Positions 1,526 to 4,790 of a DNA stretch of 4,790 bases are shown here, piece after piece. The position numbers were made by a program, and so were the translations under genes. A model generated the notes under the pieces. The model was not told the DNA's origin. It ran no database searches and saw nothing but the letters and a program-made list of their open reading frames with translations. This DNA is from a virus. Lineage: Duplodnaviria > Heunggongvirae > Uroviricota > Caudoviricetes. Positions within the stretch are counted from its first letter, which is position 1; every line of letters begins with the position of its first letter. The DNA lies in IMG/VR virus record IMGVR_UViG_2531839439_000012, positions 1 through 4,790 of that record. One strand, given 5' to 3'.

Positions 1526-1547
1526 TCTTATGACAGTGCGCATAAGA
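1526..1547 (+). promoter_or_regulatory. Inverted repeat TCTTATG-N8-CATAAGA (possible operator or protein-binding site)
   Basis: TCTTATG at 1526-1532 and CATAAGA at 1541-1547 are exact reverse complements separated by 8 bp. The site lies between the terminator and the TMP gene. Confidence 0.25.
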
Positions 1548-1577
1548 TTCATTACGTTAAAAACGACATGGGTATAT

Positions 1578-1616
1578 ATCAGTACTGATTTTACTGGAAA
1601 AACTGGATTTTCAGTA
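1578..1616 (+). repeat. 12-bp perfect palindrome ATCAGTACTGAT overlapping phased TACTG/ACTGG repeats separated by A4/T4 tracts
   Basis: ATCAGTACTGAT at 1578-1589 is its own reverse complement. ACTGA 1584-1588, ACTGG 1593-1597 and ACTGG 1602-1606 are direct repeats at exactly 9-bp spacing, with an inverted copy CAGTA at 1612-1616. The intervening TTTT/AAAA tracts are phased near one helical turn. Confidence 0.4.
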
Positions 1617-1769
1617 TCAATCCCAAAGAAGTATGGCTAATGCAGCTTTATAAGCAATTGATTCTATTAAGCGATGTTTTTTGTGATTGGTTGAAGCAAA
1701 CCTGAACACGAAGTCACTGAAGCGGCAATAAACTGTTTCATGGCGGAATTATTAGAGTAAAGAACAATC

Positions 1770-1804
1770 GGAGGTATCCGCACAACGCGGATATACAGGA
1801 CATG
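1770..1804 (+). promoter_or_regulatory. Structured translation-initiation region of the TMP gene: SD GGAGG (1770-1774), then a 7-bp stem-loop (1775-1793), then 8 nt, then ATG 1802
   Basis: TATCCGC (1775-1781) and GCGGATA (1787-1793) are exact reverse complements around loop ACAAC. GGAGG is 27 nt from the ATG in linear sequence, but folding would leave an effective spacing of about 8 nt. No other in-frame start lies between the upstream stop (1718-1720) and 1802. Confidence 0.3.
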
Positions 1805-3703
1805 AGTAACACAAACGTAGGTAGAATTTATTATGAGGTTGATGCGCGCACAGGGAAGCTATTAACCGCAGGGAAACAAGCTGACGACGCATTCGATCGC
1901 ATTGAACGCGGCGCAAAGCGCGCTGATAACTCAATCAACAAACTGAATACGACAATCAGCAAACTGGCGGCGGCGGTTAACGTTGGCCTGCTAATGATGG
2001 CGGCTAAACGCTTTATTGAAATCGCGGACAACGTAAAACTACTACGCGCCCGTGTATCCCGGCTATCCGGTAGTCTGGTTGAAGCTAAGGCTAATTTTAG
2101 CGGCATTCTTGAGATCAGCAAGCGAACTGGCATGAAGATTGAGGATACTACGAAGTTATGGGAAAACCTTACTTCAGCTTTGTCTGATTCAAACGCTACC
2201 AGGGGCCAGATCTTACAGTTGACAGAGACACTACAGCAGATCGGGCGTATTGGTGGTAGTTCATCCGAAGAAGCCGCAAACGCCTTGCGACAGTTAGGGC
2301 AATCTATTAACGGCGGGATTGTCCGTGCTGAGGAATTTAACAGCATCCTGGAGGGTATGCCGGAGCTATGGCGGCGCGTAGCAAGTCAGATGGGGATCTC
2401 AATGGGTGAGCTACGTCGCCGCATGTTGGATGGCAAACTGACGGCTGAGGATGTAGTAAATGCAATCCTGAAAGGATCAGGCGAAATCGAAAAAGAATTT
2501 AACAAGCTGCCGACAACCACGGAACAGGCAATGACAGAGCTATCAACAAATTTTAGCCTGTTACTGGAAACCATCGACCAGACGCTGCATGTTACTGAAC
2601 TGGTCGGTCGCGGTATTAAAACGCTGGCTGATTATTGCCGCGAGCTATCCGGCTGGTTTAAAACGCTGAAATCTGATTCTGCGTCATTGGCTGATAAGTT
2701 ATGGACACTTGCCGCAGCCTTTGAGCCGTTTGTGCCGGGCCTTGATTTATTCCGCGCTCAAGCCAAACAAACCGACTTCTTAGGCGCAGCGCCAGACAAT
2801 CAATCTACGGGTTTTGTGTCAACGCTACCGACACAGCAGGCCACCACTGATATTAAGCTGAAAGACAATGGCGGTGGAGGTGGCAATAAACCGAAACGCG
2901 CGCAGAAAGATCCGGCAGAAGAATCGCTGAAACGGAAACGCGCAGAACTGGAACGACTTAACCAGGGCTTTGCTGAGGGTAGCAAAGAGGCTGAAATGTG
3001 GGACGCCGTTCAGGAAATGGGCGCTAACGCAACGGCAAAACAGGTTAGTGAGATGAAAAACCTTGCGCACCTGATTTACGAAACAAACGCCGCGCGTGAG
3101 CATCAAATCGAACTGGAAGAAAAAGCAAAACAGCTTAATGAGCAATTTAATCCCGTTGATGCGCTCAAACAACGCCATGCCCTTGAAATGCAACAGGCTG
3201 ATGAGCTATTCAACAAACAGATGATTAACGAGGAAACGCTAAACGCGCTTAAACAACAGCACGCAGAAGAATTGCTTGCCTCGCAGTGGGAACAATTCCG
3301 GGCGCAAGGTGGGATTAATGGCCTGATTGGTGACATGGCTGATGGCCTGAGTGGTGGCGCTACAAATGCCGTTGTCGGCCTGCTTAATGGTACGCAGAAC
3401 CTGGAAACCGCTTTCGCCAATATCGGGACTACCATTCTCGGAAAAGTGGTGGGAAGTATCGCTGAGATGGGCGCTGAATACGTCAAACAAATGATCTTAA
3501 GCGAGGCAGCCAGCGCCAGCGCAATGAGCGGACAAGCGGCAACAGGCGCATCAATCGCATCATCAATGGCCCCGGCAGCAGCGGCGACAGCTACCGCGAC
3601 AATGGGGACGGCCCCGATGGTCGCAATGTCAGCTATCAGCGCCTTGATGGCTGGCATTACTGGCTTGTTTTGGCGGTGGTCGCTACAACGGCGGCGCGGT
3701 TAA
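1802..3703 (+). CDS. Phage tail tape measure protein-like (N-terminal TMP domain, K/E/Q-rich coiled-coil, Gly/Ala-rich hydrophobic region); frame as given ends prematurely at 3703
   Basis: 633-aa ORF. Residues ~150-230 (LRQLGQSINGGIVRAEEFNSILEGMPELWRRVASQMGISMGELRRRMLDGKLTAEDVVNAIL) match the conserved tape-measure N-terminal domain as I recall it. A long charged helical segment (KRKRAELERL...QQHAEELLASQWEQFRAQ) is followed by a Gly/Ala/Ser-rich hydrophobic segment, as is typical of TMPs. The ATG at 1802 is the first start after an in-frame stop at 1718-1720. Confidence 0.85.
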   Translation: MSNTNVGRIYYEVDARTGKLLTAGKQADDAFDRIERGAKRADNSINKLNTTISKLAAAVNVGLLMMAAKRFIEIADNVKLLRARVSRLSGSLVEAKANFSGILEISKRTGMKIEDTTKLWENLTSALSDSNATRGQILQLTETLQQIGRIGGSSSEEAANALRQLGQSINGGIVRAEEFNSILEGMPELWRRVASQMGISMGELRRRMLDGKLTAEDVVNAILKGSGEIEKEFNKLPTTTEQAMTELSTNFSLLLETIDQTLHVTELVGRGIKTLADYCRELSGWFKTLKSDSASLADKLWTLAAAFEPFVPGLDLFRAQAKQTDFLGAAPDNQSTGFVSTLPTQQATTDIKLKDNGGGGGNKPKRAQKDPAEESLKRKRAELERLNQGFAEGSKEAEMWDAVQEMGANATAKQVSEMKNLAHLIYETNAAREHQIELEEKAKQLNEQFNPVDALKQRHALEMQQADELFNKQMINEETLNALKQQHAEELLASQWEQFRAQGGINGLIGDMADGLSGGATNAVVGLLNGTQNLETAFANIGTTILGKVVGSIAEMGAEYVKQMILSEAASASAMSGQAATGASIASSMAPAAAATATATMGTAPMVAMSAISALMAGITGLFWRWSLQRRRG

Positions 3704-3995
3704 CGGTGGCAATCTTTACAGGGTTGGTGAGCACGGTGTCCCTGAGTTATTTACCTCTACTGGCGGGAAACAGTACATGATCCCCGGCGAGGGTGGACGA
3801 GTTACACCGGGCCGCGATCTGGTTGGCAGTGGTGGCGGCATCACACTGAACGTAACAAACAACATCCAGGCGACAAACGGCTGGACTGAAGACGACTCAA
3901 AAGCGTTGCAACAGACTATAGAAAACACAGCAATGCGCCTGATGCAGCGCGAGTCGCAAAGACCTGGAGGCATGTTACAACCACGGCGGCGTTAA
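3672..3995 (+). CDS. C-terminal segment of the same tape-measure-like protein, in the +1 frame (frameshifted continuation); the 6-frame track shows its ATG-initiated part as 3777..3995
   Basis: The frame with codons at 3672, 3675, ... is open from 3648 to the TAA at 3993-3995. It encodes GGGRYNGGAVNGGNLYRVGEHGVPELFTSTGGKQYMIPGEGGRVTPG..., which resembles the conserved TMP C-terminus (compare phage lambda gpH ...GNLYRLMRGY... and the common ...YRVGE.GPEL... pattern). Both frames are open across 3648-3703, and the junction sits at the T4 run 3668-3671. Confidence 0.6.
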   Translation, partial: GGGRYNGGAVNGGNLYRVGEHGVPELFTSTGGKQYMIPGEGGRVTPGRDLVGSGGGITLNVTNNIQATNGWTEDDSKALQQTIENTAMRLMQRESQRPGGMLQPRRR

Positions 3996-4165
3996 CCAAA
4001 TCCCACGCCAGGGGGATAGACTGGCGGACCTTCAAAGACGGTCGCACACCGTGTTTAACATAATTTATTGTTTTTTGCTTGCTCTTATTATTGCAGCCGT
4101 TAGAGTTGGCGTGGCAGTTTTTCACCTGTTTCGCGTGTTGCTGTGTTTTTGGGGAAGAAAAACAA

Positions 4166-4261
4166 ATGAGAAGGCTTATATACCTGGTATTTATGCTATT
4201 TGCTATCGGGCAAGCCATAATTTTTATCACAATGCTGATCTGTCTGATGCTCTTTAGTTAA
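4166..4261 (+). CDS. Candidate small hydrophobic membrane peptide (31 aa: MRRLIYLVFMLFAIGQAIIFITMLICLMLFS)
   Basis: ATG at 4166 is preceded by GGGGAAG (4151-4157) at about 8-nt spacing. The peptide has a basic N-terminus (RR) followed by one predicted transmembrane helix. It is the internal-start version of the 60-aa ORF 4079..4261. I recognise no homolog, and short ORFs in AT-rich DNA are often spurious. Confidence 0.25.
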   Translation: MRRLIYLVFMLFAIGQAIIFITMLICLMLFS

Positions 4262-4790
4262 CTCCACCAGGATCCGCGCCGGGCTTTGCTATACAGACCA
4301 ATCACTCTTAATATAAGCTATTGATTCTTCTTAATTATAACCGCGCGTTAGAATTAACCTTCCCGCCATAAACGCTCCTACGCAAAAATCCCTCACAACT
4401 ACCCTGTCAATTTGCCAGATTTCACGTACACGCGCCCATATCCCCGCTACCGGATACACGCCCGCTTATACCGGACACCGGATAAACAAAGGCCCAGGTA
4501 GTTAGCAACCTACCCAGGCCCCGCGCATGGTTTTAATGCCATCATTATTAAGCATGCTAATACTAATCAAATCATAATTAGCACAACTTATAATCGAACA
4601 GAAAACACACAAACCAGATAATGATTTTTTCTGGTTATACTTATCTAAAAAAGTGGTATAGGATGTAACTTATTATTTTGTAAGGATAAATTTATTGCGT
4701 GGTAAGATGAACAGGCTTGTGCACCTCCCGAAAAACACGCGAAAATCAAAGTGTTCTTTCTTTTTTTGTTTTTATTTTTTCATTTTCTCT

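Follow-up and report, generated by a model that had tools for sequence, protein, structure and literature searches.

To our knowledge, only a handful of natural split ribosome-binding sites (RBSs) have been documented, namely those of T4 genes 25 and 38, plus the related noncontiguous cases of thrS and rpmE. The split RBS of T4 gene 25 was reportedly described by Nivinskas et al. in 1999 and by Malys and Nivinskas in 2009, and the translation initiation region (TIR) of gene 38 is said to have been described by Gold et al. Read from NC_000866, the gene 25 TIR runs GAGG-C-CTCAAAG-AGTT-CTTTGAG-TTACTATA-ATG. The TIR of gene 38, read from the T4 genome, runs GGAG-A-GGGGC-TTCG-GCCCT-TCTAAAT-ATG and has a spacer of 7 nt. 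For both genes, a hairpin between the Shine-Dalgarno sequence (SD) and the AUG cuts the spacing, from 22 to 5 nt in gene 38 and from 27 to 11 nt in gene 25, an arrangement confirmed by reporter assays and DMS probing (PMC3014915). The same type of split layout is shared by close T-even phages and is missing in distant relatives (PMC3014915). The T4 cases have been grouped with the noncontiguous TIRs of Escherichia coli thrS and rpmE, and the mRNA track of the ribosome tolerates such helices (PMC7297116).

Here, we describe a comparable arrangement in front of a tape-measure protein (TMP) gene in a stretch of 4,790 nucleotides from a virus record, which is referred to as the window. The SD of this gene lies 27 nt from the ATG when measured along the linear sequence. 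A hairpin with a perfect 7-bp stem and a 5-nt loop sits directly 3' of GGAGG, and with the hairpin taken out the gap is 8 nt. The effective gap would be 7 nt if an optional eighth pair, G1774.U1794, forms, as the predicted fold suggests. A preliminary description of this DNA had placed GGAGG at 1770-1774, 27 nt from ATG 1802, and a perfect 7-bp stem-loop at 1775-1793, exactly in the gap between them; these coordinates are exact. Its estimate that folding brings the SD to about 8 nt from the ATG agrees with the computed distance. On balance, we think it likely from this layout that the TMP gene uses a split (noncontiguous) RBS of the T4 gene 25/38 type. It would be a new example of a trick known from T4 and not a new mechanism, as the mechanism has been known for decades. 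The features considered are as follows.

1535-1769, + strand: conserved non-coding leader of the island, with a dif-like site (1535-1562) at its start; defined by alignment of 16 E. coli copies.
1748-1769, + strand: upstream part of the TIR, A/U- and purine-rich, ATTATTAGAGTAAAGAACAATC; it moves with the module in one copy (L040) and is replaced together with the gene in another (L030).
1770-1774, + strand: distal SD GGAGG (GGAGGU with U1775), read directly; an invariant string in 11/11 distinct TIRs.
1775-1793, + strand: bridging hairpin, with arms TATCCGC (1775-1781) and GCGGATA (1787-1793) and loop ACAAC (1782-1786); recognized from folding, the inverted repeat and covariation.
1794-1801, + strand: 3' spacer from hairpin to start codon, TACAGGAC; 7-11 nt across variants, with 8/8 columns variable.
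1802-1804, + strand: ATG with which the tape-measure gene begins; no earlier start follows the stop at 1691, and every E. coli copy has its annotated start here.
1802-3995, + strand: tape-measure gene of the island (Pfam TMP_3), broken in the window by an extra T at 3668.

Positions 1535-4790 of the window match E. coli chromosomes, with a best identity of 99.5%. There they form part of an island of about 7-10 kb that occupies the intZ (CPZ-55) site of the eut operon, between eutB and eutA. Its genes encode an integrase, a small AlpA/HTH_17-type protein and several small genes without known function, and frequently also an HNH endonuclease and a Sf6-type small-terminase-like protein. This gene set resembles that of a PICI-type phage satellite, and the island may be a small one. 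Nothing specific was found in the literature on CPZ-55 as a satellite or on satellites with a tape-measure gene. Island copies have a non-coding leader of about 290-330 nt and a single large gene whose product, about 730 aa long, is annotated as a tape measure or a hypothetical protein. In the window, Pfam TMP_3 covers residues 70-260 of this gene product (E = 1.8e-53).

The large gene is highly variable among the island copies found at the E. coli eut locus and one other site (L001-L016, L036-L040 and L054). Its product can be assigned to TMP_3, weakly to TMP_2, or to no family, and the copies have no more than the first ~40 codons in common. The same HTH/HNH/TerS-like gene set is found on an E. 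coli plasmid of 9,003 bp (CP057168.1; L057), with a serine resolvase in place of the dif-like site and TMP gene of the integrated islands. Relative to the closest E. coli copy (TOK-001, L001, 99.5% identity), the TMP gene of the window has an extra T at 3668, TTTT (3665-3668) versus TTT, and a 12-bp in-frame deletion at ~3534. The resulting +1 frameshift ends the protein at 633 aa, versus 734 aa in TOK-001, and the remainder of the coding sequence runs on in another frame to 3995. The frameshifted gene is either a pseudogene or the product of a homopolymer sequencing error.

At the start of the leader, AGTGCGCATAAGATTCATTACGTTAAAA (1535-1562) resembles the E. coli dif site GGTGCGCATAATGTATATTATGTTAAAT, a 28-mer found verbatim in the literature, and a dif-like site occupies this position in all integrated island copies with this leader. 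An 8-bp inverted repeat (1525-1532/1541-1548) spans the junction at 1534/1535, and base 1544, inside the dif-like site, is the single local difference from the closest E. coli copy. Positions 1-1534 are not island DNA and match the right end of a filamentous (inovirus-type) prophage, whose genes include a replication initiator, a coat protein, Zot and a GspD/pIV secretin, and which some E. coli genomes carry in tandem. This part of the window contains the secretin gene (86-1051) and a terminator-like hairpin (1450-1480) followed by a T-run (1481-1487). The filamentous prophage appears to have integrated into the dif-like site of the island and not into chromosomal dif, presumably by way of XerCD.

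The ATG at 1802 is the authentic start of the TMP gene. It is the first ATG, GTG or TTG downstream of the in-frame stop at 1691, and its equivalent is the RefSeq start in all E. coli copies fetched. The variants differ by indels of 1-3 nt upstream of the ATG, and thus the region before it is non-coding. A start inside the hairpin or spacer was rejected, since neither contains an ATG, GTG or TTG and the frame is not kept among variants. A mini-ORF at 1740-1760 (ATG-GCG-GAA-TTA-TTA-GAG-TAA, MAELLE*), with its end 10 nt from the SD, was likewise rejected as a means of coupling, since in many island copies it has shrunk to ATG-TGA and is therefore unlikely to be a functional upstream ORF.

GGAGG is the only strong SD in the leader. 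The anti-SD duplex at the distal GGAGG is computed at -10.8 kcal/mol in the window, and at -9.8 to -10.8 kcal/mol across variants. Of the sites in the window at most 10 nt from the ATG, the best is AGGA at 1797-1800, which lies 1 nt away, reaches -4.0 kcal/mol and is not conserved. Over the variants, the best proximal duplex (within 10 nt of the AUG) has -3.3 to -5.7 kcal/mol, and most proximal candidate sites fall inside the 3' arm of the stem. A usable proximal SD is absent from every island copy compared, in keeping with the preliminary description, which had called GGAGG the only good SD.

An alternative is that initiation does not depend on an SD, and that the 30S subunit loads via protein S1 on the A/U-rich stretch by the AUG. 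The hairpin would then serve the RNA in another way, for instance by shielding a 5' end left by processing against RNases, or as the binding site of a protein, from the island or a helper phage, by which TMP synthesis is tuned. Both the spacer and positions 1748-1769 are A/U- and purine-rich, and the conservation of a hairpin is by itself silent on the reason for it. Furthermore, late genes of satellites are commonly under helper-dependent control, as in the biology of PICIs and P4, which we count in favor of S1-based initiation. This is the main live rival to a split RBS, but we consider it unlikely. The hairpin directly adjoins an SD of about -10.5 kcal/mol that never changes, in contrast to the freely varying spacer, the loops are unconserved, which speaks against a loop-reading protein, and the geometry is almost base for base that of two experimentally validated split RBSs.

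Folding predictions agree with the hairpin that the preliminary description had drawn. For 1760-1830, it is present in both the minimum free energy (MFE) structure and the centroid (-12.4 kcal/mol, z = -2.45, with 0/200 shuffles as stable), and for 1700-1900 it is again present in both. Its pair probabilities from the partition function are 0.75-0.99 over three context sizes, mostly >0.9. The isolated hairpin has an energy of -10 to -11 kcal/mol. RNAalifold returned the hairpin independently from a 130-nt alignment, and the SD and AUG are mostly unpaired in the predicted folds. In some variants and contexts, other folds are predicted to compete by covering the SD or dissolving the hairpin, for example in L014 at -100/+60, in L040, and in a rare variant (variant F, below) in the longest context.

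The probability that a perfect stem of at least 7 bp with a loop of 3-8 nt arises within a random 27-mer, composition matched to the window, is about 0.002-0.003. Over its full length, the window contains 4 of these hairpins, versus 2.0 +/- 1.6 in shuffles. Given that such hairpins are not rare in themselves, the stem alone is weak evidence, and it is the position and the comparative data that carry weight. A scan for repeats found the hairpin palindrome once per locus, always between SD and ATG, and a dispersed REP-like palindromic repeat was rejected given this single copy at a fixed position.

A stem-loop that contains GC pairs and lies in a leader could in principle be an intrinsic transcription terminator or attenuator before the TMP gene. 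However, 1793 is followed by TACAGGAC, which is not a U-tract, the complementary strand also lacks a T-run, and a scan of 1050-1900 for promoters and terminators returned 0 terminators, so we give this reading hardly any credence. The same scan found no sigma-70 consensus promoter in the leader. A search of Rfam 15 at a permissive E-value gave no relevant match, the sole match being a plant miRNA model at 1610-1695 (23.6 bits versus a gathering threshold of 160). A second hairpin is predicted in the leader at 1718-1740 (TGAAGCGG-CAATAAA-CTGTTTCA, with two G.U pairs). It is nearly invariant in the fetched copies, and no informative covariation was found among them.

We compared about 45 copies, which give 11 distinct SD-to-ATG sequences. 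They come from the window, 22 complete E. coli genomes, 14 metagenome contigs and 4 assemblies reached via protein look-ups; a fifteenth metagenome contig (L030) shares only the upstream leader. GGAGG and ATG are invariant in the 11 distinct TIRs, and the gap between them is 25-28 nt. In every variant the hairpin begins directly after GGAGG and is followed by a spacer of 7-11 nt, with a stem of 6-8 bp and a total hairpin length of 16-19 nt. As the whole leader is well conserved, the invariance of GGAGG by itself proves little. The changes are distributed very unevenly. The 8-nt spacer is hypervariable, with a mean minor-allele fraction of 0.35 and 8/8 columns variable, whereas the stems, at 0.06-0.13, are conserved to the same degree as the leader, at 0.08.

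The named structure pairs in 97.4% of alignment cells, and pairing falls to 25-52% if the 3' partner is slid by 1-3 columns. The observed pairing values were reached by 3/500 column shuffles, a comparison in which related sequences can beat shuffles without any structure. No change breaks pairing at pairs 2-7, and the outermost pair alone is lost, in two variants. Wobble-compatible single changes are seen at pair 2, which alternates between A-U and G.U, and at pair 1, which is U-A or U.G. In variant F (L016 and L021: GCCCGA-AGCGA-TCGGGT), both partners of pairs 3 and 7 have changed, from UA to CG and from CG to AU. A deletion of 3 nt in variant G (the ATCC 8739 group, also L054) leaves a gap of 25 nt, and this variant still folds into a 6-bp stem with a 4-nt loop (GTCCGC-AAAC-GCGGAT). 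Loop sequences differ by lineage (ACAAC, ACAAT, AGCGA and AAAC).

The hairpin thus appears to be conserved with compensatory changes, although these are few. In the homologous leaders, where the preliminary description had suggested looking for covariation, two double-compensated pairs and two wobble pairs stand alongside the high overall pairing; the signal is positive but thin, because both double changes belong to one rare lineage, variant F. A search for further copies or intermediates of this variant found it in 1/5426 complete E. coli genomes and 1 metagenome contig, with no others, and the two double changes could represent one recombination event. All copies are from Escherichia, so the phylogenetic depth is shallow.

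These comparisons bear on whether the hairpin could lack a function altogether. It might have arisen by chance or hitch-hiked, and been kept by close kinship, with the gene poorly translated or expressed in another way. By chance alone, a sequence of 4.8 kb would hold about two perfect 7-bp hairpins, and the copies all come from one genus. Yet the exact placement in the SD-AUG gap has P ~0.003, changes have saturated the neighboring 8 nt but are all pair-preserving at pairs 2-7, and variants F and G have been remodeled and still fold. We regard an idle hairpin as highly improbable.

Whether the conserved symmetry serves RNA or DNA can also be judged from the variants. The perfect 7-N5-7 palindrome in the window could be an operator through which a dimeric protein controls, negatively or positively, transcription into the TMP gene. 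Small HTH proteins encoded by the islands might bind such a site, and variant F retains dyad symmetry at 5/6 positions. However, 7/11 distinct TIRs carry TGTCCGC/GCGGATA, which makes a G.U pair in RNA and a mismatch in the DNA dyad, and the spacing of the half-sites changes from 5 to 4 nt in variant G. The site would also be oddly placed for an operator, between SD and AUG and well downstream of any plausible promoter, and the locus holds no second copy of it. G.U pairs that exist only in the sense RNA, together with the unconserved loop, are better explained by a structural role in RNA than by a DNA operator or a protein that reads the loop, and we consider an operator very unlikely.

Searches beyond these copies added no hairpin variant. 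Among genome contigs, with one genome per species, nothing matched the TMP N-terminus pattern or an invariant 22-mer of the leader. Viral contigs had no match to the leader 22-mer and gave 6 matches to a degenerate TIR pattern, all spurious. The leader was not matched in phage and plasmid collections, and a search via the protein encoded just upstream of the leader returned only Escherichia and no new variant of the hairpin.

Phage homologs of the TMP gene have a different TIR. In six phage or prophage relatives (L032, L034, L041, L049, L050 and L051), the N-terminus begins at the same motif, xNxGxIYYEVDA, which is common to island and phage TMPs. These genes have an ordinary SD (GAGG or GGAG) 5-8 nt upstream, and the hairpin is absent in 6/6. 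For the four of the six that were computed, the anti-SD duplex has -6.4 to -7.1 kcal/mol and lies 1-7 nt from the AUG. Given these ordinary SDs, the split layout seems to be a feature of the island lineage and not general to tape-measure genes. That even distant phage TMPs begin at this motif bears out the start position given in the preliminary description. Homologs with a different, well-placed start, which would have spoken against it, were not found, and the satellite copies keep the ATG and the SD-hairpin layout.

As judged from the copies compared, the SD-hairpin-ATG module is tied to its gene. In L040, ATTATTAGAGTAAAGAACAAT-GGAGG-hairpin-ATG is retained behind unrelated upstream DNA. 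A converse junction is seen in L030 (UEOM01001038, ~5326, minus strand), where the leader up to about window position 1753 is joined to a different gene with a canonical SD, AAGGGGG-5 nt-ATG. This junction suggests that the leader and the SD-hairpin-gene module recombine independently.

A further possibility is that the hairpin acts as a gate and does more than space the SD passively, and that the satellite has swapped the ordinary SD of a phage TMP gene for one that depends on a fold. If true, the leader would have to adopt the right conformation before TMP could be made, which might be triggered by helper-phage-driven transcription, by processing, or by binding or unwinding by a helper or island factor. 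TMP synthesis would then be timed to tail assembly of the helper, as a satellite-specific translational checkpoint that exploits the principle of the split RBS. We consider a gate of this kind quite unlikely.

The reading that we favor, a split RBS, would work as follows. The mRNA presents, in order, GGAGG, a stable hairpin of 6-8 bp, an unstructured A/U-rich spacer of 7-11 nt, and the AUG. Folding of the hairpin would remove its 16-19 nt from the linear path, so that the distance from the SD:anti-SD helix to the AUG in the P site would be about 8 nt, a normal distance, versus 27 nt. Because the hairpin leaves the SD and AUG single-stranded, it would aid initiation and not block it. An SD more than about 13-15 nt from the start was taken as too far, and a spacing of about 5-13 nt as functional. 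On this scale, the island TIRs have the five sequence-level marks of a split RBS, namely a distant SD, no proximal SD, an intervening hairpin, a spacing of 7-11 nt and compensatory change. We suspect from these marks that the ribosome uses GGAGG across the hairpin, and that expression of TMP may depend on the fold.

If true, a split RBS would have arisen independently in another type of genetic element, a small satellite-like island of E. coli. The natural variants amount to ready stem-swap and stem-shortening mutants, and could offer a convenient way to study how a helix that separates the SD from the P site is fitted into the 30S subunit. Software for gene finding or for calculating RBS strength, where it scores SD spacing along the linear sequence, would call this start SD-less or mis-score it. 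The general understanding of translation initiation is unchanged by the finding.

From the perspective of known systems, it is useful to compare the element with several hairpins in or near initiation regions. As in thrS and rpmE, a stem-loop would lie within the mRNA track of the ribosome with initiation elements on both sides (PMC7297116). The thrS and rpmE hairpins differ in serving autoregulatory proteins as operators and in their position, 5' of the SD, which they separate from an A/U-rich enhancer. Local mRNA stem-loops at phage TIRs also control initiation of T4 e, soc, 49 and I-TevI (PMC3014915). Those hairpins sequester the SD and/or the AUG, whereas here the stem includes neither, apart from a G.U pair that the final G of the SD may form.

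The two T4 split RBSs are much closer. The preliminary description had named gene 38 as the precedent for structure-dependent SD positioning, which is borne out by the literature (PMC3014915) and by the T4 genome, with gene 25 as the closer match. Like the window, gene 38 has a distal GGAG, a hairpin 1 nt later and a short spacer, and its 22-nt gap is cut to ~5 nt. It differs in its stem of 5-6 bp, its UUCG tetraloop, its smaller gap and the unrelated gene that it precedes (tail-fibre assembly).

Gene 25 is known from mutational, reporter and DMS evidence, and the element described here from its sequence and predicted fold. The T4 gene lies at the overlapping 26-25 junction of a lytic myovirus, and the island element stands behind a non-coding leader of ~270 nt in a small integrated island. 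Nevertheless, the geometry is that of T4 gene 25. Both have a 27-nt gap, a 7-bp stem that starts 0-1 nt after the SD, and an 8-nt A/U-rich spacer, and both leave the SD and AUG free. In both, the hairpin is kept in close relatives and missing in distant ones, here satellites versus phages. The two sequences are dissimilar, and the same architecture without sequence similarity points to convergence.
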